Assembly: GCA_964557115.1 (NCBI GenBank) | Contig: CAZKYO010000004.1 | Location: forward strand, 53,892-117,891 | Origin: an uncultured Gemmatimonadaceae bacterium | GTDB lineage: Bacteria; Gemmatimonadota; Gemmatimonadetes; Gemmatimonadales; GWC2-71-9 | Length of the DNA: 64,000 bases | Direction of reading: 5' to 3' | Shown: positions 17,258 to 25,784 of the stretch, in pieces | Layout: every line of letters starts with the position of its first letter | Numbering within the stretch: position 1 is the first letter of the stretch | Translations under genes and position numbers: made by a program | The notes under the pieces: generated by a model | What the model saw: only the letters and a program-made list of their open reading frames with translations | Database searches by the model: none | Told to the model about the DNA's origin: nothing

Positions 17258-17344
17258 CTCGAGACTCGCGATTCGCGGAAACCACGACGAGAGCGAGGCC
17301 CGGGATGACACCCTCCAATCGCGAATCACGAATCGCGACTCTCC
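17249..17344. repeat. heptad-arm palindromic element, ATTCGCG family, spanning the dnaE2 stop and the next gene start
   Basis: Left gattcgt gactcga gactcgc gattcgc (17249-17276); right ccaatc gcgaatc acgaatc gcgactc (17315-17341). The dnaE2 TGA (17255-17257) lies in the left arm, and the ATG at 17305 lies in the spacer. Confidence 0.8.
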
Positions 17345-19107
17345 TCCTGCTCGCCGCGATCGCCGCCCCGCTTGGCGCCCAGGACCGCGCCTGGTGGGAC
17401 ACGCTGCCCCGGCCCGACCGGCCGGCGATCGCGTGGACGCGCCAGTCGCTGTACCTGCCGATGCGCGACGGCGTGCGCCTCGCGGCCGACGTCTTCCTCC
17501 CCGCCGGCGCCGACCGGGCGCACCGGGCCGCCACCATCCTGCACCTCACCCGCTACCGTCGCGGGCTCCAGTTCAAGGATCCCGCGCGCGAGGCGGCGGC
17601 CGGGCCGACGGCCGGGCTGATGCCGTTCCTGCAGGCCGGATACGCCGTGGTGATCGTCGACGTGCGCGGGACGGGCGCTTCCTTCGGCTGGCGCACCACC
17701 GAGTTCTCGCCCGCCGAAGTGCTGGATGGCTGGGACGTCCTCGACTGGATCGTCGCGCAACCCTGGTCGGACGGCGCGGTCGGCGCCACCGGGATCTCGT
17801 ATCCCGGCACGACGAGCGAACTCGTCGGCACCCTCGGACACCCGGCGCTCAGGGCGGTCGCCCCCCTCTTCTCGATCTATGACTTCTATCCCGACGTGAT
17901 CCGGCCGGGCGGGATCTTCCTCGCGCCGTTCTTCCGGGCCTGGGCCGACCTCGTGCGGCAGATGGACGCCAACCGCCTCAACGGACCGACCGACCCGGTC
18001 ACCGGCGTGCGGCCCGTCGATGGTCCCGACGGCGCGGCCCTGCTCGCGGAGGCGATCGCGGAGCATGCGCGCAACGCGTCGATCTACCCGCAGGCGGCGG
18101 CGCTGGCGTTCCGCGACGACGTGGCCGCTGACGGCATCTCGCTCGACCAGGTCTCGCCCCACGCCCGCTACGACACCCTCTCGCGCCGGATCCCGATCTA
18201 CTCGATGGGCGGATGGGCCGACGGCTTCGCGGGATCGCAGATCCAGCGCTACCTCGCGCAGCCCTCCGCGGGCTCGCGGCTCACCATGGGGCCGTGGAAC
18301 CATGGCGGCGGCTGGATCTACCAGCCCGGCCGCCCACCGGCGCGTTCGGTGTTCGACCAGCAGGGCGAATTGCTGCGGTTCTTCGACAAGTACGTGCGCG
18401 GGATCGACAGCGGCATCGAACGCGAGGCGCCGGTCCACTACTTCACCACCGGCGCCAATCGGTGGGTGGCGGCCGACCGGTGGCCGGTCGCGCACCGCGA
18501 CACCACGCTGTCGCTCGGGAATGGACGCCTCGCGGCGCGACGGCTTCCCGATGCGCCGCCCGTCACCCTGCGTCCCGACTCCACCCTGGGCACCGGCAAC
18601 CAGTCGCGCTGGAACACGATCCTCGGTGGCGGCCCGGTCGCCTACCCGCCGGGACGATCCGGGACGGCGACCGGGTGGACCGGATTCGAATCGCCGCCGC
18701 TCGAGGCCGACCTCACCATCACCGGCCACTCGATGGTGCGACTCGGCGTGACCGGCGCGGCCACGGGAAGCCAGCTCTTCGTGTACCTCCAGGACGTGGA
18801 CTCCACCGGCGCCGGCTGGCAGGTGACCGAGGGCGAGATCGACCTGCGCTTCCGCCGGACCCAGCCTGCTCCGCCGCGATATCCCCGCCCAGAGGCCTAC
18901 CATGACTTCCGGCGCGGCACTGCCGGCGACGCGAAAGGACCGGTGGCGATCGAGCTGCTGCCGTTCTCGCACACCTTCCGGCGCGGGCATCGTCTCCGGC
19001 TCGTCCTCGCCGCGAGCGACCGCGACCACTTTCCGCCACCGGGGGCCGGGATCACGATCACGATCGATCCCGCCGGCTCGACGCTCGTCCTGCCGATCGA
19101 GCAGTGA
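17305..19107 (+). CDS. CocE/NonD family hydrolase (X-Pro dipeptidyl-peptidase S15-like)
   Basis: Start at MTPSNRESRIATLLLLAAIAAPLGAQ. YLPMRDGVRLAADVFLP, YAVVIVDVRGTGASFG, GISYPGT and a C-terminal beta-sandwich are typical of CocE/NonD. Confidence 0.85.
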   Translation: MTPSNRESRIATLLLLAAIAAPLGAQDRAWWDTLPRPDRPAIAWTRQSLYLPMRDGVRLAADVFLPAGADRAHRAATILHLTRYRRGLQFKDPAREAAAGPTAGLMPFLQAGYAVVIVDVRGTGASFGWRTTEFSPAEVLDGWDVLDWIVAQPWSDGAVGATGISYPGTTSELVGTLGHPALRAVAPLFSIYDFYPDVIRPGGIFLAPFFRAWADLVRQMDANRLNGPTDPVTGVRPVDGPDGAALLAEAIAEHARNASIYPQAAALAFRDDVAADGISLDQVSPHARYDTLSRRIPIYSMGGWADGFAGSQIQRYLAQPSAGSRLTMGPWNHGGGWIYQPGRPPARSVFDQQGELLRFFDKYVRGIDSGIEREAPVHYFTTGANRWVAADRWPVAHRDTTLSLGNGRLAARRLPDAPPVTLRPDSTLGTGNQSRWNTILGGGPVAYPPGRSGTATGWTGFESPPLEADLTITGHSMVRLGVTGAATGSQLFVYLQDVDSTGAGWQVTEGEIDLRFRRTQPAPPRYPRPEAYHDFRRGTAGDAKGPVAIELLPFSHTFRRGHRLRLVLAASDRDHFPPPGAGITITIDPAGSTLVLPIEQ

Positions 19108-19172
19108 CCCGGCCTCGCCCGTTCGGGTCCCTCGTGGGTACGATCCTTGGAACGCTCGACCGTGAGGCACCG

Positions 19173-19598
19173 ATGCGCACCCGAATGCTCACCCCGGCCC
19201 TGCTGCTCGCCGCCCTCGCCTGCGACGCCGGCGAACCGACCCGCGCGATCCATCCGGATCGCTTCCCCGTCCCCGGCAGCCACGAGATGGCGATCGGCGA
19301 CTCCGCCCAGCTCGAGGGCACGCCGTACACCCTCGAGATGCTCTCGCTCGAGACGGACTCCCGCTGCCCGGCCGAGGCTGACTGCATCTGGGCCGGCGAG
19401 GTGAAGGTCCGCGCCGCCCTGCACGCCGATCCCGGCCTCGGCATCCCCGATATGGAACTCACCCTCGGCACCACCTCGGCGACGGTGGCGGGGGGCGTCT
19501 CGCTCCAGATCACAAGTGTCGCGCCGGTGGCCCACGCCGGCGTCGCCATCCCGGCGAGCGCGTACCGGCTCACGATCACCGCGGACCAGCCGCAGTGA
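19173..19598 (+). CDS. hypothetical lipoprotein
   Basis: Start at MRTRMLTPALLLAALACDAG (lipobox), small beta-rich protein. Stop overlaps the next start (GTGA). Confidence 0.55.
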   Translation: MRTRMLTPALLLAALACDAGEPTRAIHPDRFPVPGSHEMAIGDSAQLEGTPYTLEMLSLETDSRCPAEADCIWAGEVKVRAALHADPGLGIPDMELTLGTTSATVAGGVSLQITSVAPVAHAGVAIPASAYRLTITADQPQ

Positions 19599-19979: not shown

Positions 19980-20083
19980 GCGATACGAGACGCGCGACAC
20001 GCGACCGGCCCCGGAGAAACACTCAATGTTCTCCGGGGCCGGTCGCGTGTCACCTGTCGCCTGTCGCGCGTCGCCTGTCGCGG
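19980..20083. repeat. heptad-arm palindromic element (GCGACAG family) with a perfect 23-bp inner stem; likely bidirectional terminator
   Basis: gacacgcgaccggccccggagaa (19996-20018) pairs perfectly with ttctccggggccggtcgcgtgtc (20029-20051), 10-nt loop. The outer right arm is a run of six tandem GTCGCNN heptads (20041-20082): gtcgcgt, gtcacct, gtcgcct, gtcgcgc, gtcgcct, gtcgcgg. Fills a convergent intergenic gap. Confidence 0.85.
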
Positions 20084-21349
20084 CTACTGATCTTCCAGGT
20101 CCGCCAGTGCCTCGACGGCGGCGCGGCGCACCTCGGGATCCCTGTCGGTCAGGGCGCGAGTGATGGCGGGCTTGGCCGCCAGCGCGCCGATGCTCCCGAG
20201 CGTCTCGATCGCGCCCTTGCGGATCTCGACATCCGGATCCGCCACCAGGCCGATCAGCACGCCGGCGCTGGCGGGGTCCTCGATGTTGTCGAGCGCGTTG
20301 ACGACCGCCCGGCGGAGCCGGATGTCGGAAGACGATGCGGCGCGGAGGAGTTCCGGCGGCGCGGCCGCGAGGTTGTCGAGGTCGCCCAGCGCCTCCGCCG
20401 CGGCGACCTGCAGCTCGAGGTCGTCGCCGCCGAGGACCGCCGCGAGCACCGGGGCCGAGCGGGCCGCCTCGATGTTGCCGAGCGCCTCGATCGCGGCCAG
20501 CCGCACGCGGCGATCGTCGTCGCGCTGCACGGTCCGTTCGAGCGCCGGCGCGGCGTCGACGCTCTCGATGTCGCCGAGCGCCTCGGCGGTCGCCCACCGG
20601 ACCGTCGGTTCAGGGTCGCCGAGCAGCGGGAGCAACCCGGCTACCGCCTTGGGATCCTCGATCGTCCCGAGGGCCCAGGCCGCGGTGGTGCGCACGCGGA
20701 CGGAGCGGTGGTCGAGCAGTCGCGTGAGCGGTGCCACCGACGCGCGATCCTCGAGCTCGCCGAGCGCCCAGGCAGCCATGGCCACGACCGCCTCGTCCCC
20801 GGCCGCGAGCAGGCGCTCCACGCGGGGGCGCAGCGCCGGCCGGTCGTGTTCACCGATCGCCAGGAGGGCTGCCTCGCGGATCCGCACCGAGGCGTCGTCC
20901 AGCAAGGCACCCAGCGCCTCGTCGCCGATGGCCGATCCGCCAAGCATCTTCGCGGCGGTGCGGCGGATGCACGGATCGTCGCTCCCGAGCCGACGGGTCA
21001 GTTGCCGGATCGCCGCGGCGTCGCGCACCCGCCCGGAGATCGAATCCTTGGCCGCACGCGCCGCCACACGGGCGTCCGACAGGCGCCCGATGCCGAGTTC
21101 GTCGCCGCCCCACCAGAAGTTGCCGATCTGGTCGCTCAGCATCTCGCAGGCGACCGGATCGGTGCGTCCCATCGCATCCAGCATCATCGCGACCCGGGCC
21201 GAGTCGGGGCCGGGACGGTCGCCGTCCCAGTCGCCGATGTGCAGCGACGACTGCGGCGCGGCGTCCGGCGCCAGGGTGAGCATCGTGGTCGCGGCCGCGG
21301 CCGACCCGGCACCGAGGACGCCCACCAGCAGCAGCACGGTCTTCATCAC
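20084..21349 (-). CDS. secreted HEAT-repeat (PBS-lyase HEAT-like) protein
   Basis: 421-aa ORF with signal peptide and at least 8 repeats of the type D..VR..AA.ALG.I....A...L..LL.D. Confidence 0.85.
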   Translation of the reverse strand: MMKTVLLLVGVLGAGSAAAATTMLTLAPDAAPQSSLHIGDWDGDRPGPDSARVAMMLDAMGRTDPVACEMLSDQIGNFWWGGDELGIGRLSDARVAARAAKDSISGRVRDAAAIRQLTRRLGSDDPCIRRTAAKMLGGSAIGDEALGALLDDASVRIREAALLAIGEHDRPALRPRVERLLAAGDEAVVAMAAWALGELEDRASVAPLTRLLDHRSVRVRTTAAWALGTIEDPKAVAGLLPLLGDPEPTVRWATAEALGDIESVDAAPALERTVQRDDDRRVRLAAIEALGNIEAARSAPVLAAVLGGDDLELQVAAAEALGDLDNLAAAPPELLRAASSSDIRLRRAVVNALDNIEDPASAGVLIGLVADPDVEIRKGAIETLGSIGALAAKPAITRALTDRDPEVRRAAVEALADLEDQ

Positions 21350-23430
21350 TGGCCGCCCTCGTCGCCGAAGTAGTCCACCGCGATGCGGCGGACCTTCGCA
21401 TCGGCGTGGTTGAGGGCGCGCTTGAGCGCGGCGTGGCTCTCCGGCGTCTTCAGCTCGGTGAGCGCCTCCGCGGCCTGCTCTCGCACGTCGCTCGAGGTGT
21501 CATCGAGCAGCCGGATGACGGCCGGGACCGCGGCCGTCACGTGCCGCTCGGCGACGTAGCACGCCGCTTCCTGGCGCACGTCGGCGCTCGGGTCGCCGAG
21601 CAAGCGGGTGAGCTGCGCCTCGGGGATCGTGCCGCCCAGTTCGATCATCGCCTGGATCGCCTCCTGGCGAACGTCGGCATCGGCGTCGCCGAGGGCGGCG
21701 GCGACCGCCGACGCGCTGGAGGGATCGCGGATCTCGCTGAGCGCCTGGATGGCACTCTGTCGCACGTCGGCGTCGGGATCCGTCACCAGTCGCGCGATCG
21801 CGGGGAGTGATTCGCGATCCTTCATCTCGCCGAGCATCTGGATCGCCTCCTGTCGCGTGTCCGGATCCTCGGCGGCGAGCATCTTGCGCACCGGGGCCGC
21901 CGGCACGCCGCGCTCGAAGTTCGAGAGCGCGCCCAGGGCCGCCGAGCGGACGTTCCGGTCGGCGTCGTCGAGCGCGGCGACGAGCGCGGGGATCGCCATC
22001 GGCTCCTCGAGCCGTCCCAGCGCGTGCGCCGCGGCGCGGCGCACGTCGGCGTCGTCGTCGCGGAGTCGCGCCATCAGCGCCCGCACCACGGCCGTGTCGC
22101 CCTTGAGGCCCGCCACCGACTTGCCGTCCAGCATGCCGAGCGCCACCTCGCGCTCCTGGTCGGTCAGGCCGTCGGTTCCGCGACTGACCCGGTTCGAGAA
22201 CGTCCGCGAGATGTTCGTGTTCGTCGCCGTCCGCGTCGCCGTCTCGGTCGACCAGCGGCGCGTGAGGTCTCCGGTGCCATTGTCATTCGGCTGCTCAGGA
22301 CCCACCGGCTCGAGGCCGAGCCGCGCATCCGTCGGCACGCCCGCGGGATCGAACGCGTCGGGGTAGCGCAGGTGGCCCGCGACGCCGGGCGCATAGAACA
22401 CGGTCGCGAGCAGGGCGCCCATCGAGAACACCGTCGCGAGCCGGTTGCCCGCCGGCGGCGCATCGCCGCGCTCGAGAAGGCGGGTGACCCGCGCGCTCAG
22501 CTGGGAGCGCTGCTCGGCCATGCCGGCGACCGGGACGCCGAGCGGCGAGGCCTCGATCCACTCCGCCACCTTCACCAGGCAGCGCGCCAGCGGCACCCCG
22601 CCGCTCCGACGCGCGGCCCACTCGTCAGCGAGGTATTCGGCCGACTCCTGGATGTTGCGTCGGGCCAGCCGGTTGAGCGGCTGGAAGAAGAAGAGTCGCT
22701 CGAGGACGCAGGAGAACGACAGCCACTGCGGGTCGCGGCGGACCAGGTGGGCCAGTTCGTGCGCCAGCATCGCCCGCCGCTGCGCCGGCTCGAGATCGTC
22801 GAGCGCCGCCTGGGGCAGGCAGATCTCGCGGCGGCCAAGGGCCACCGGACTCGAGATCGCCTGCGACGCGGTGAGGTGGATGCGGCGACGAACCCCCGCC
22901 TCCTCGCTGAGGCTTGCGAGCAGGCCCCGCCATTCGTCATCACCCACGCCGCGCCGGTCGCCGAGACGACCGACGAGGATCAGGCGGCGACCGGCATACC
23001 AGGTCACCAGGAGCAGCGCGAGCACCCCCCACGCCAGCGTCAGGATCGTGCCGACGGACGGCGCCGACGCCGATGGCGTGGTCGCCACGCCTCCGGCCTC
23101 GCGGGCCGACTGCCCGGCCGGGTCGGTCTGGCGTTCGCGTCGGACCGGGACGGGATCGACCGGGTCGGCGACCGCACCCGTCGGGTCGGAGACGGTCGGC
23201 GCCGGTGTCGCCGCCAGCGCGACCGTGCCGGTCGGATGCACGTCGAAACCCGACTGGACGGTCGCGGTCACCACCCCGCCGATCATCGCGACCTTCCAGA
23301 GCACGTCACGCACGGCCGGATCCGACCGGCGCAGGCGGAGCACCAGCCACGCCAGCCCGAGCAGCGCCGTCGAGTGGAGCGCGTACGTCAGCAGCCACGC
23401 CGCGACGTCCTGGGCAATCGTGCTGTTCAC
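21346..23430 (-). CDS. BlaR1/MecR1-like M56 peptidase signal transducer with C-terminal HEAT-repeat domain
   Basis: 694-aa ORF with N-terminal TM helices and M56 zinc motif AMLAHELAHLVRRD. There is no penicillin-binding domain; the last ~300 aa are HEAT repeats (DADVRRAAAHALGRLEEPMAIPALVAALDDADRNVR...). 4-nt overlaps with both neighbours. Confidence 0.85.
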   Translation of the reverse strand: MNSTIAQDVAAWLLTYALHSTALLGLAWLVLRLRRSDPAVRDVLWKVAMIGGVVTATVQSGFDVHPTGTVALAATPAPTVSDPTGAVADPVDPVPVRRERQTDPAGQSAREAGGVATTPSASAPSVGTILTLAWGVLALLLVTWYAGRRLILVGRLGDRRGVGDDEWRGLLASLSEEAGVRRRIHLTASQAISSPVALGRREICLPQAALDDLEPAQRRAMLAHELAHLVRRDPQWLSFSCVLERLFFFQPLNRLARRNIQESAEYLADEWAARRSGGVPLARCLVKVAEWIEASPLGVPVAGMAEQRSQLSARVTRLLERGDAPPAGNRLATVFSMGALLATVFYAPGVAGHLRYPDAFDPAGVPTDARLGLEPVGPEQPNDNGTGDLTRRWSTETATRTATNTNISRTFSNRVSRGTDGLTDQEREVALGMLDGKSVAGLKGDTAVVRALMARLRDDDADVRRAAAHALGRLEEPMAIPALVAALDDADRNVRSAALGALSNFERGVPAAPVRKMLAAEDPDTRQEAIQMLGEMKDRESLPAIARLVTDPDADVRQSAIQALSEIRDPSSASAVAAALGDADADVRQEAIQAMIELGGTIPEAQLTRLLGDPSADVRQEAACYVAERHVTAAVPAVIRLLDDTSSDVREQAAEALTELKTPESHAALKRALNHADAKVRRIAVDYFGDEGGQ

Positions 23431-23819
23431 CGGTCCTCCTTGGCGCGATCCTCGGCCTGATCGATCATCGAACGGAGCCGGGCCAGATCACCCGGGGCGA
23501 CTTCCTGCGACGTGAGGAGATGGGTCATCAGCGCGGCCACGTCTCCGGCGAAGAGCCGCTCGGTGAGGTCGCTCACCATCGATTCCTTCACCTCGGCCTC
23601 GCTCACGAGCGCGCGGTAGAGGTACTGCCGCTGCTCCGCACGACGGGCGACGACCCCCCGGCGTTCCAGCCGGGTCAGCAACGTCGCGACGGTGGTCTGC
23701 GCCAGGCCGCGCTCCCGATGGAGCACTTCCCAGACATCCGCCACGCTGGCCTCTCCCCTCGACCAAAGCAGACGGAGGATCGTGACCTGCAGTTCAGTGA
23801 GTTCATGTGGTTCGGGCAT
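23427..23819 (-). CDS. BlaI/MecI/CopY family transcriptional repressor
   Basis: 130-aa ORF. LTELQVTILRLLWSRGEASVADVWEVL...TTVATLLTRLERRGVV..R...R.Y.Y is the winged-helix signature of the family. Confidence 0.9.
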   Translation of the reverse strand: MPEPHELTELQVTILRLLWSRGEASVADVWEVLHRERGLAQTTVATLLTRLERRGVVARRAEQRQYLYRALVSEAEVKESMVSDLTERLFAGDVAALMTHLLTSQEVAPGDLARLRSMIDQAEDRAKEDR

Positions 23820-23840
23820 CGAATCAGCTCCGGGGTAGTT

Positions 23841-23854
23841 TCTACAGATGTAGA
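23841..23854. promoter_or_regulatory. candidate BlaI operator, TCTACA-GA-TGTAGA
   Basis: Perfect 6-bp inverted repeat containing the TACA/TGTA half-sites known for BlaI/MecI operators, 22 nt upstream of the blaI-like start, in a locally AT-rich patch. Confidence 0.5.
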
Positions 23855-23888
23855 TTTACGCCCGTAGTGCAAGTCTGTCAAGGGCACG

Positions 23889-23915
23889 AAAAAGGGCCCC
23901 GACAAGCCGGGGCCC
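23889..23915 (-). terminator. rho-independent terminator of the DUF4397 gene
   Basis: On the minus strand, stem gggcccc/ggggccc with 8-nt loop, followed by TTTTT. Confidence 0.6.
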
Positions 23916-23934: not shown

Positions 23935-24630
23935 TCAGTTCTCGCGGATCGGGACCAGCTCGAGCTCGCCGTCCACCCGGCGCATCAGGACAACGCTCCA
24001 GACCTGGCCCGCCTGCATCGTGACGGTCGCCTCGGCCTGCACCGTCCCGTTGGCGAGGTTGGTGATCCGGACCAGGTAGCTGCCGGCGGGACGGACGACG
24101 AATCCCGGGAATTCCCCGCCGAGGCCCACGCCGTAGTCGAACGGGGAGGCGAGACGCGCCGAGGAGTCGACAGGGGTTCCCACCGGGGTGAGCCAGGCCT
24201 CGAGGGTCGGCGTGCCGATCACGCTGTGGACCACCCGGACCTTGACCGAATTGCCGACCGGGACGGAGGCCGTGTCGGCCCCGATGATCAGGGAGACCGC
24301 CCGTCCATTGGCGGACCCGCCGATGATCGCCGTCCGGCGGCCGCCCTCGGTCACCGCGAACTGTGCCGAGGCGACGACCTGGCCGCCATCGATCCGGGCC
24401 TCCAGCCGATGACTGCCGCCCGGGATCACCCGCGAGATCCGCGACCCTGTGGCCGGGAGCGAGATGGTGCCGTCATCAAGGACGAGGGACGCGATCGCCC
24501 CGTCCGGCAAGGCGTTCAGGATGGCCAGTTGAGCGTCGCCGGCGGGCAGCCCACCCGTGGCGTCCGCCATGCCGCATGCGGCGAGCAGGACGACCAGGAG
24601 GCCGAGCATCGGCTTCGGGGAACGGACCAT
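23935..24630 (-). CDS. DUF4397-like lipoprotein
   Basis: Start chosen at MVRSPKPMLGLLVVLLAACG. Two tandem beta-sandwich-like halves with V.VRVVH ... G.Y.V.I pattern as in DUF4397. Start uncertain (24609/24630/24654). Confidence 0.65.
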   Translation of the reverse strand: MVRSPKPMLGLLVVLLAACGMADATGGLPAGDAQLAILNALPDGAIASLVLDDGTISLPATGSRISRVIPGGSHRLEARIDGGQVVASAQFAVTEGGRRTAIIGGSANGRAVSLIIGADTASVPVGNSVKVRVVHSVIGTPTLEAWLTPVGTPVDSSARLASPFDYGVGLGGEFPGFVVRPAGSYLVRITNLANGTVQAEATVTMQAGQVWSVVLMRRVDGELELVPIREN

Positions 24631-24677
24631 ACCTTCGTACCTTCCGGGAACCATGCGATTGAGCCAGCTTGTCCGGC

Positions 24678-24729: not shown

Positions 24730-25320
24730 GTGGATCGCCCCGTTTCGGGACGTGACGCGGGCGGGGCGCCGGAGGTCTCCACCCCAGTGACGCCAACCGA
24801 CGCCGCCCTGATCGAGCGGATCGCCGCGGGGGAGTCATCGGCACTGGCCGAGCTGATGGATCGGCACGCGCCAGGGCTGATGCGGTACGCGACGCATTTC
24901 CTGCAGTCGGCCGATGACGCCGACGAGGTTCTGCAGGATACCTTCGTCAGGGCCGACAAGGCCATTCGGAAGGGCGTCCGGCCCGACCACGTGTCGGCTT
25001 GGCTGTTCCGGATCACCGTCAATCGGTGCCGGTCGCGACGGCGGCAGTTCTGGCGGTTCGTGGGAGGCGAGGCGGGAGAGGCGGTCATCGCCAGGGCCTC
25101 GACAGCTCCCCGGGCGGAAATGACCGAGTGGCGTGACGAGATCAGCCGGGCCCTGGCGCAGCTCAGCCAGCCGACCCGCGAAGCGTTCCTCCTCAAGCAC
25201 GTGGAGGGACTGACATATGAGGAGATGGCCGACATTACCGGCGCCGGTGTACCGGCCCTCAAGATGCGCGTCTCCCGGGCGTGCGAACGGCTCCGGGAAC
25301 TGCTGACGGACTTGCGATGA
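24730..25320 (+). CDS. ECF (group 4) RNA polymerase sigma-70 factor
   Basis: Region 2 (DADEVLQDTFVRA ... WLFRITVNRCRS) and region 4 (REAFLLKHVEGLTYEEMADITGAGVPALKMRVSRA). GTG start uncertain (24730 or 24787). Confidence 0.85.
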   Translation: MDRPVSGRDAGGAPEVSTPVTPTDAALIERIAAGESSALAELMDRHAPGLMRYATHFLQSADDADEVLQDTFVRADKAIRKGVRPDHVSAWLFRITVNRCRSRRRQFWRFVGGEAGEAVIARASTAPRAEMTEWRDEISRALAQLSQPTREAFLLKHVEGLTYEEMADITGAGVPALKMRVSRACERLRELLTDLR

Positions 25321-25784
25321 GCGACGACGAACTGAACGGCCACGATCCGCTGCATGCCGCCGTGATGGCGCTGCGCGACGGGACCGCGGTGACCCCCGGG
25401 CTCGCCGCGCGGACCCGGCGCCGGGCGCGTCGCCAGGCGGTCCGGCGCTGGGCCAGCGGTTCGATCGGCATCGTCGCGACCTTCGCGATCGGGCTGATCG
25501 TCCTTCGCGGCGGTGGCACGCCCGGGCAGGTCACCTTTGCGCTGGCAGCCCCCTCCAGCGCTGGCATCTCCCTGGTCGGCGACTTCAACGACTGGGAACG
25601 GGACCGCATCCGCCTCAAGCCCGATGGCCGGGACCACTGGAAGGTGACGGTCAAGCTGCCGCCGGGACGGTACCGCTATTCGTACGTGACCGATGACGGC
25701 ACGTGGCTCGCCGATCCGCAGGCGCCGCCGGCCCTCGACGAATTCGGCACGCCGACCTCGGTCCTCACGGTGCCGAGCGAATGA
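25317..25784 (+). CDS. single-pass anti-sigma-like protein with C-terminal CBM48/AMPK-beta glycogen-binding-like domain
   Basis: ATGA overlap with the sigma gene. One TM (IGIVATFAIGLIVL). C-terminus SLVGDFNDWERDRIRLKPDGRDHWKVTVKLPPGRYRYSYVTDDGTWLADP. Confidence 0.7.
   Translation: MSDDELNGHDPLHAAVMALRDGTAVTPGLAARTRRRARRQAVRRWASGSIGIVATFAIGLIVLRGGGTPGQVTFALAAPSSAGISLVGDFNDWERDRIRLKPDGRDHWKVTVKLPPGRYRYSYVTDDGTWLADPQAPPALDEFGTPTSVLTVPSE

Follow-up and report, generated by a model that had tools for sequence, protein, structure and literature searches.

What does a BlaR-type receptor sense when it carries no penicillin-binding domain? BlaI/BlaR pairs are the textbook case of signalling by direct cleavage of a repressor and were, until recently, regarded as antibiotic sensors; a 2026 study reports that a penicillin sensor is absent from most members of the family, and that what these respond to is unknown (PMC13492132). 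Here we analyse a three-gene locus of an uncultured Gemmatimonadaceae bacterium, located in a stretch of 64 kb with 71% G+C (GenBank assembly GCA_964557115.1, contig CAZKYO010000004.1, positions 53,892 to 117,891), which we call the window and in which all coordinates are counted. A prior reading, made from the letters of the DNA without database searches (the sequence-only reading), had proposed a BlaI/BlaR1-type operon whose sensor domain is replaced by HEAT repeats and which ends in a gene for a secreted HEAT-repeat partner. Our analysis indicates that the locus is probably a self-contained proteolytic derepression switch of the BlaI/BlaR type, equipped with a periplasmic HEAT sensor, and that beta-lactams are not its signal.

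A BlaI-type repressor, an M56 protease and a tandem dyad

The three genes follow one another head to tail on the minus strand: blaI, encoding a BlaI-family repressor (23427-23819, 130 aa), then the gene of the M56-HEAT transducer (21346-23430, 694 aa), then that of the exported HEAT-repeat partner (20084-21349, 421 aa), all defined from the list of open reading frames (ORFs) and from Pfam. At the junction of blaI and the M56 gene (GGACCGGTGAACAGC) the frames overlap by the 4 nt GTGA, with an AGGAGG ribosome-binding site 5′ of the overlap; at the junction of the M56 and partner genes (CAGTGATGAAG) they overlap by 4 nt if the GTG start is used and by 1 nt if translation begins at the ATG of the next codon. 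The trio and its 4-nt overlaps had been described before and hold up, save that the length of the second overlap depends on the start codon. An intrinsic terminator of the DUF4397 gene that lies upstream (23894-23915, minus strand; a 9-bp stem with 8 GC pairs, then TTTTT) shields the operon from read-through of that gene, and the gene downstream of the partner is convergent. Given the overlapping junctions, the upstream terminator and the convergent neighbour, the trio is therefore one transcription unit. No second blaI, M56 or HEAT gene was found elsewhere in the window, and an Rfam scan of the whole window gave zero matches.

For comparison between genomes we scanned one genome per species, which yielded at least 391 confirmed relatives; the best 80 of these, from 80 different assemblies, make up our set of loci, and 76 of the 80 were usable for operator counts.

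The product of the first gene belongs to the BlaI family, as had been proposed. It matches PF03965 Penicillinase_R over its full length (residues 7-121 of 130; E 1e-30, 106.9 bits against a cut-off of 22.6), and its residues 5-120 align gaplessly to residues 6-121 of MecI (PDB 1sd6, E 3e-11; also 1okr). According to the Penicillinase_R model the protein consists of a winged helix and C-terminal dimerisation helices, and it contains zero cysteines. Its ribosome-binding site, GGAG, was read from the sequence at 23828-23831 (minus strand), 8 nt 5′ of the ATG. His100-Leu101 aligns with N101-F102, the scissile bond in the dimerisation domain of MecI/BlaI, at which cleavage inactivates those repressors; among 76 orthologues H100 is present in 75 and L101 in all, a pattern that fits a putative cleavage site conserved within the family and yet specific to it.

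Is the second gene product a BlaR-type protease? Its membrane and protease module (residues 1-352; 22375-23430, minus strand) was delimited from PF05569, a BlaR1 profile match, helices modelled by AlphaFold2 (AF2) and charge bias. Peptidase_M56 (PF05569) matches residues 115-315 with 68.9 bits (cut-off 31). The zinc motif HELAH occupies residues 224-228 (22747-22761, minus strand), the third-ligand motif EYLAD residues 265-269, and H224, E225, H228, E265 and D269 are invariant across 28 homologues. The gluzincin domain (residues 165-320) is modelled confidently and is placed in the cytoplasm. A sequence profile built from alignment A1 matches the BlaR1 cryo-EM chains 8exp (E 1.8e-5) and 8exs. 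When the full transducer model was searched against the PDB with Foldseek, the HEAT solenoid dominated the matches and BlaR1 was not in the top 50, so that the link to BlaR1 rests on Pfam and the sequence profile. Pfam finds no match to the penicillin-binding domain PF00905 in the transducer, and the NCBIfam model blaR1_generic (NF000326) scores 21 bits against a cut-off of 400, covering residues 160-263 only. This upholds the earlier description of the protein as an M56 peptidase with a HELAH site and no penicillin-binding domain, and its zinc ligands are intact; in our reading, too, the inducing signal is not acylation by a beta-lactam.

Directly after the protease core, in a loop modelled with lower confidence, lies a nearly invariant segment, residues 291-311 (~22498-22560; W-I-x-A-S-P-L-G-V-P-V-A-G-M-A-E-x-R-S-Q-L). 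BlaR1 cleaves itself in the cytoplasmic region ahead of its last transmembrane helix (PMC9834060), and by analogy this loop could be the counterpart of that region.

Upstream of blaI stands a perfect palindrome, written TCTACAGATGTAGA at 23841-23854 and reading TCTACA-TC-TGTAGA on the minus strand, with the core TACAnnTGTA; TACANNTGTA is unique in the window (1 copy in 64 kb, 0 expected from 100 shuffles). The sequence-only reading had placed this palindrome 22 nt upstream; it is indeed present, unique and conserved, at a distance of 21 nt from the ATG. A second dyad, which does not figure in that account, lies at 23857-23866 (minus strand). This distal dyad, TACG-GG-CGTA, is degenerate and still palindromic; it is located 14 bp upstream of the proximal one, in the promoter spacer, and overlaps the -10 box. 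A perfect -35-like hexamer, TTGACA, was read from the sequence at 23876-23881 (minus strand), and 17 nt after it follows a putative -10-like hexamer, TAAATC, at 23853-23858 (minus strand), to which the distal dyad contributes its right arm and the proximal one its left edge. Judged by the positions of TTGACA and TAAATC, the two dyads together extend over spacer, -10 box and start region.

This arrangement is conserved. The exact TACANNTGTA occurs no more than 160 nt upstream of blaI in 64 of the 76 loci (chance ~2e-4 per locus at the local base composition), and the looser pattern TACRnnYGTA yields two dyads in 59 loci and at least one in 74. The centres of the dyads are 14 bp apart in 51 loci and 15 bp apart in 8, and a TTGACA-like hexamer (at most 1 mismatch) precedes the distal dyad by 13-15 nt in 59/60 two-dyad loci; orthologous loci have TAAATC, TAGAAT or TAATAT in the -10 position. 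The consensus of the distal dyad is aCTACAnntGTAaatc, that of the proximal dyad AAatcTACaccTGTAGatca. We predict from these comparisons that the TACA/TGTA dyad is a conserved operator-type element at the cassette's own promoter.

A predicted periplasmic HEAT module and its exported paralogue

On which side of the membrane does the HEAT domain lie? AF2 confidently models four transmembrane (TM) helices in the transducer, at residues 3-33, 38-62, 126-158 and 330-346. Summed over 28 homologues, the N-terminus contains 0 Lys and Arg and the short loop behind TM1 contains 81; the stretch of 25 residues ahead of TM4 has 150, and the stretch of equal length that follows it has 55. Because of this charge bias and the AF2 helices, the transducer is predicted to have its N-terminus outside, its protease inside and its C-terminus outside, as in BlaR1 (PMC9834060), which would place the HEAT domain in the periplasm. 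The sequence-only reading had likewise taken this domain to be extracytoplasmic and had named a cytoplasmic position as its own refutation; the topology check, with four TM helices and a bias of 150 to 55, gave no such position.

The AF2 model has a mean confidence score (predicted local distance difference test, pLDDT) of 78. Residues 75-122 and 355-442 are disordered, the latter at pLDDT <50, and most of the periplasmic tether (residues 353-442; 22105-22374, minus strand) falls into this second region. Among the 28 homologues the tether between TM4 and the solenoid measures 20-90 aa and holds zero conserved columns. It leads into a solenoid of ~8 repeats of 31 aa (residues 443-694 and the stop codon; 21346-22104, minus strand; HEAT_2, E 3e-48), of which residues 443-692 reach a pLDDT of ~98. 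An earlier estimate of about 300 aa of C-terminal HEAT repeats is correct as to the presence of the module and too long as to its size: the folded part comprises ~250 aa (443-692) and stands behind a disordered linker of ~90 aa.

Two short juxtamembrane motifs on the predicted periplasmic side stand out in the membrane module: D-x-R-P-A-G-T after TM2 (residues 59-72, ~23215-23256) and A-P-G-V-x-G after TM4 (residues 345-352, ~22375-22398). Both are conserved amid unconserved loops and tether, and AF2 pairs residues 70-71 with 349-350 as a beta-bridge. On the strength of the model they are a candidate signal-receiving site and would be the obvious place for docking.

The profile of the HEAT module matches designed alphaRep binders (E 6e-96), and alphaRep structures are its top Foldseek matches. 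At the positions that are 'variable' in alphaRep, conservation compared repeat by repeat gives a mixed pattern. The NCBIfam models of two further HEAT proteins match as well, NblB with 56.8 and 76.1 bits (cut-off 300) and CpcE with 55.3 and 65.1 bits (cut-off 330), and the window annotation lists no phycobilisome genes near the cassette. We rejected an identity as phycobilin lyase or NblB: the equivalog cut-offs are widely missed, the location is predicted to be periplasmic and phycobilisome genes are lacking nearby.

The third gene had been read as encoding a 421-aa protein with a signal peptide, made almost entirely of HEAT repeats, and hydropathy and Pfam agree. The protein matches HEAT_2 (E 6e-50) and HEAT_PBS (E 2e-22), and its N-terminus carries a hydrophobic export signal (residues 1-27, from hydropathy), predicted to be a cleaved signal or an anchor, which is also found in orthologues; a lipobox cysteine is absent. 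The AF2 model is one continuous solenoid from residue 50 to 420 (pLDDT 88, predicted template-modelling score 0.83), and across 55 orthologues its N-terminal cap contains Cys68 in 100% and Cys127 in 98%. How close are sensor and partner? They share ~31% identity and differ in repeat number, and the Cys-containing cap is limited to the partner. Median scores are 187 bits between sensors, 130 bits between the sensor and partner of one locus and 124 bits between those of different loci, and the best match of a sensor HEAT module is never a partner. As the two form separate orthologous groups, they are an old pair and not the result of a recent duplication. In a mirror-tree comparison controlled for the M56 domain, sensor HEAT and partner give a partial r of 0.17, a weak signal reached by 26 of 999 permutations.

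One divergent clade (L054, L063, L065, L066, L068 and L077) has a longer downstream gene, ~460-520 aa where complete, in which a proline-rich stretch (…APPPPAPP…) after the signal peptide replaces the Cys-containing cap; the partner N-terminal probe found no match in L054, L063 and L065.

Conservation of the cassette and its surroundings

Is this arrangement peculiar to one genome? A search with the transducer returned 1,495 relatives at E <=1e-5; the best 120 all combine PF05569 with HEAT, and wherever the source names their organism it is one of the Gemmatimonadota. Seventy-five of the 80 loci bear a label beginning with Gemmatimonad-, and the closest relative among the 80 (L001, 62% identity) is from Gemmatimonadales. 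blaI lies directly upstream of the M56 gene in 78 of the 80, and the non-repeat N-terminal region specific to the partner directly downstream in 72, with 5 of the other 8 loci ending at a contig edge; the M56/partner junction is mostly a 4-nt overlap. Co-occurrence of M56-HEAT fusions with a downstream HEAT protein, which had been suggested as a check, thus amounts to a partner directly downstream in at least 72 of the 80 loci. A query with the N-terminal 129 aa of the partner returned 4 fragments, and the full-length query was used for the homology search. All-against-all clustering of the ORFs of the 80 loci found no further family in more than 17 of them and no candidate target gene. Since no other flanking family is conserved among the 80 loci, the cassette appears to be autonomous. 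Four of the cassettes (L008, L009, L016 and L041) belong to metagenome-assembled genomes assigned to the genus Gemmatimonas. Three loci come from metagenome-assembled genomes labelled Thermoanaerobaculia (L053), Steroidobacteraceae (L055) and Holophagales (L067), labels that could reflect horizontal transfer or mis-binning.

The M56 module alone, used as query, retrieved 27,038 cluster representatives at E <=1e-3, of which 1,273 at E <=1e-30. Among its best 150 matches, 62 have HEAT repeats, nearly all of the closest included, and the rest are of other lengths. In ten long relatives without HEAT, Pfam recognised PDZ once and a cyclase-like repeat once, and in the remaining eight proteins no known C-terminal domain. 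The relatives P0289-P0374, with an M56 module 40-48% identical to that studied here, carry C-terminal regions of up to ~900 aa without a Pfam domain, or else PDZ or a squalene-cyclase-like repeat; their sequences point to a large pool of uncharacterised BlaR-type sensors. A survey of ~15,000 M56 proteins distinguished 254 architectures; 96% of the proteins adjoin a BlaI homologue, ~6% have a penicillin-binding domain, and HEAT is absent from the nine architectures with at least 100 InterPro entries (PMC13492132). Our search of the literature on M56 with HEAT, or on BlaR1 in Gemmatimonadetes, found no description of an M56-HEAT architecture. Non-penicillin BlaR variants as such were already known to be common (PMC13492132, 2026); new here are the HEAT sensor and the paralogous exported partner.

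Several features surround the operon. Directly upstream, before the terminator described above, a DUF4397 protein with an N-terminal hydrophobic segment is encoded at 23935-24654 (minus strand); ORF clustering of the 80 loci found no conservation of this gene next to the cassette. Further on, an ECF-type (extracytoplasmic function) sigma factor with Sigma70_r2 and r4_2 (24730-25320, plus strand) overlaps the start of the gene for a 167-aa protein (25281-25784, plus strand) with a C-terminal glycogen-binding CBM48/AMPK1_CBM domain (Pfam), possibly an anti-sigma factor equipped with a carbohydrate-binding sensor; a homologue of the sigma gene lies close to the cassette in 8 related loci, L001 included. 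Just past the stop codon of the partner, 20030-20083 (minus strand) holds several copies of CGACAGG/GCGACAGGCGAC (…GCCGCGACAGGCGACGCGCGACAGGCGACAGGTGACACGCGAC…), and the scan called no terminator-like hairpin there. At 17266-19107 (plus strand) lies the gene of an S15 X-Pro dipeptidyl-peptidase (Peptidase_S15, E 5e-51, and PepX_C) with a signal peptide; it is overlapped by a gene at 19104-19598 (plus strand) for a protein of 164 aa that begins like a lipoprotein (…LAALACDAG…) and is without a match in Pfam. The PADLOC defence models gave only generic HEAT/ARM and winged-helix matches and no specific defence component.

What the switch might sense

How could such a cassette work? The analysis establishes the order of the genes, their domains and catalytic residues, the conserved operator, a predicted topology and the presence of the cassette throughout the phylum. 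We infer, by homology, that the M56 protease cleaves the repressor, and likewise what kind of signal is received and what the partner does. At rest, dimers of the BlaI-like repressor would occupy the two tandem dyads of the TACAnnTGTA type over the -10 and start region and keep all three genes low. The transducer would be a membrane zinc protease with four helices whose catalytic domain lies in the cytoplasm; its C-terminal alphaRep-like solenoid, suspended in the periplasm by a flexible linker of 20-90 aa, would serve as a scaffold that binds proteins or peptides. An event in the periplasm would alter what the solenoid binds, be it a ligand, the partner or conserved juxtamembrane motifs within the transducer. 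This would free the protease, which would cut the repressor near the invariant His100-Leu101 and so derepress the operon. The third gene, translationally coupled, would supply an exported HEAT paralogue as the output, a periplasmic binder that is probably also a feedback modulator of the sensor. We favour the partner as output because it is the sole conserved non-regulatory product of the cassette. Each half of the scheme has its precedent: in BlaR1 signalling an extracellular loop is displaced from the sensor domain and BlaI is cleaved directly by BlaR1 (PMC9834060), and in the CenIR system of C. difficile the most induced member of the regulon is an exported protein encoded just downstream (PMC13492132).

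A number of points weigh against this scheme. Support for the switch is computational throughout, and the topology rests on hydropathy, charge bias and the AF2 model, with a TM2 that is weakly hydrophobic. The residues at the scissile position are H-L, those of staphylococcal BlaI/MecI N-F. A promoter consensus scan made no call at the start of the operon, because the -10 candidate TAAATC, a poor one, ends in C. With a tether that is disordered, variable in length and unconserved, rigid allosteric coupling as in BlaR1 is difficult to envisage; its flexibility argues against such coupling and would favour a mechanism with a tethered ligand or competition. Finally, the partner's role as output is derived from local conservation and from 64 kb of genome, and distal members of the regulon are possible.

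Does the partner act on the sensor, or does it merely share its target? It is quite conceivable, if short of being the likelier case, that the exported HEAT protein is a co-receptor that binds the HEAT module of the transducer, an interaction that the sequence-only reading had found attractive; formation or break-up of the periplasmic complex would then be the signal and the true outputs of the repressor would lie elsewhere in the genome. Translational coupling of the two genes in most loci is consistent with this, as is the alphaRep-like fold common to both proteins; alphaReps designed to bind alphaReps exist among the PDB matches (e.g. 4jw2, 'binder of A3 protein'), and the mirror-tree comparison yields a weak excess of co-variation. 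That signal, however, is of a type that shared phylogeny can yield, the similarity of sensor and partner within a locus is barely above that across loci, and neither a conserved target gene nearby, in the 80 loci, nor a second operator, in the 64 kb, was found.

A second tentative option, about which we are similarly reserved, is that the partner is pure output: sensor and partner would never be in contact and would have a periplasmic ligand in common, be it a peptide, a protein toxin or a component of the envelope, which the sensor detects and the induced soluble partner sequesters. This would parallel BlaR1, whose penicillin-binding sensor induces a beta-lactamase or penicillin-binding protein (PBP) 2a, and it accords with a cassette in which the partner is the sole conserved non-regulatory gene and, within the window, the operator is found at the operon promoter only. 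The natural family that gave rise to the alphaRep binders includes these HEAT modules (PMC3754942), and CenIR provides a precedent for an exported protein as main output (PMC13492132). Yet a shared ligand is not evident, since the HEAT parts of sensor and partner are only ~31% identical, fall into separate orthologous groups and differ in repeat number, and the partner alone has the Cys cap.

Very unlikely, in our judgement, is a cytoplasmic HEAT domain, or a housekeeping membrane protease or chaperone, with the repressor answering to something else. The HEAT/PBS-lyase proteins characterised so far (CpcE/F, NblB, YibA) are, to our knowledge, all cytoplasmic, and both the weak hydrophobicity of TM2 and the long disordered tether, which speaks against classical allostery, could be held to favour such a protein. 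But a single TM helix (330-346) separates protease and HEAT module, Lys and Arg are far more frequent before that helix than after it (150 versus 55 in 28 homologues), and a protease that is to reach the repressor has to face the cytoplasm, as that of BlaR1 does (PMC9834060). The paralogous partner, moreover, has an export signal, and adjacency to blaI is near-universal. Least credible of all is a copper-responsive repressor of the CopY/TcrY type in a cassette for metal stress: CopY_TcrY (TIGR02698) is the best NCBIfam match of the repressor (E 1e-20) and the dyad core TACAnnTGTA equals the 'cop box' of CopY, but the 73.8 bits stay below the family cut-off of 121.95, the gene is paired with an M56 protease instead of a copper ATPase, and direct metal binding is ruled out by the absence of any cysteine and, with it, of the C-terminal CxCxxxxCxC motif.

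The proteolytic switch with a periplasmic HEAT sensor, our preferred reading, admits of a bolder form, which we consider rather improbable: a receptor of the BlaR type whose ligand is a protein or peptide in the periplasm and not a small molecule. At rest the HEAT groove would hold the exported partner or the conserved juxtamembrane segment, and an incoming ligand, for instance a competitor's proteinaceous toxin or a misplaced envelope protein, would displace the occupant, in parallel to the displacement of the loop in BlaR1. The soluble HEAT paralogue so induced would be a decoy that neutralises the ligand. If this were true, receptor and decoy would form an inducible, self-limiting circuit, a 'binder on demand', common to the whole phylum.

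With BlaI/BlaR1 and MecI/MecR1 of S. aureus and B. licheniformis the cassette shares a PF03965 winged-helix repressor, adjacent repressor and protease genes, a zinc protease of the M56 family that has four TM helices and the ligand motifs HEXXH and EXXXD, and TACA/TGTA dyad operators over the promoter of an autoregulated operon (here judged from sequence). Unlike BlaR1/MecR1, with their penicillin-binding sensor of the transpeptidase type, it has a HEAT solenoid of 250 aa at the end of a long disordered tether; its genes run in the order blaI, blaR and a third, exported gene, the scissile position is H-L and not N-F, there is no beta-lactamase or PBP target, and its host, one of the Gemmatimonadota, is a diderm. 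The mec locus likewise has a third co-transcribed gene, for the anti-repressor MecR2, which modulates a switch of the BlaI/BlaR type; MecR2 is cytoplasmic and acts on the repressor, whereas the partner here is exported and unrelated to it in fold.

CenIR of C. difficile, Rv1846c/Rv1845c of M. tuberculosis, the homologues in M. abscessus and PvmSR of P. aeruginosa all combine BlaI and M56 without a penicillin sensor. Such atypical BlaIR pairs do not respond to beta-lactams, and their signals are unknown (PMC13492132; preprint 10.64898/2026.08.03.742534). In their transducers the extracytoplasmic part is short, mostly disordered or absent; here it is a large, confidently folded repeat scaffold, and the exported protein encoded downstream is paralogous to the sensor. 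The 31-residue repeat is that of alphaRep and its natural parents (Mth187, YibA, CpcE/F, NblB), with a Foldseek template-modelling score of ~0.8 (target-normalised). Natural PBS-lyase HEAT proteins are, however, cytoplasmic bilin lyases or of unknown function, whereas both modules here are predicted to be periplasmic and are linked with a switch that works by proteolysis. M56 proteins that carry TonB_C, M23, Plug, PDZ or other C-terminal modules are built on one modular plan with the present transducer, in which the M56 part is conserved and the extracytoplasmic domains are exchangeable; we know of no other M56 architecture with a paralogous exported partner.

The cassette occurs in at least several hundred species of Gemmatimonadota, a major and little-studied phylum of soil bacteria. 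It combines a folded, well-modelled sensor built from a binder-type repeat, a paralogous exported partner and a conserved tandem operator and promoter; together these make a well-defined system whose input, switch and output are all accessible to tests. It raises the mechanistic question of how a signal gets across the membrane from a sensor suspended on a flexible tether. Should the HEAT modules be specific binders coupled to a transcriptional read-out, the design could be useful to protein engineers. Above all, the cassette could reveal what a BlaR that is not an antibiotic receptor senses.

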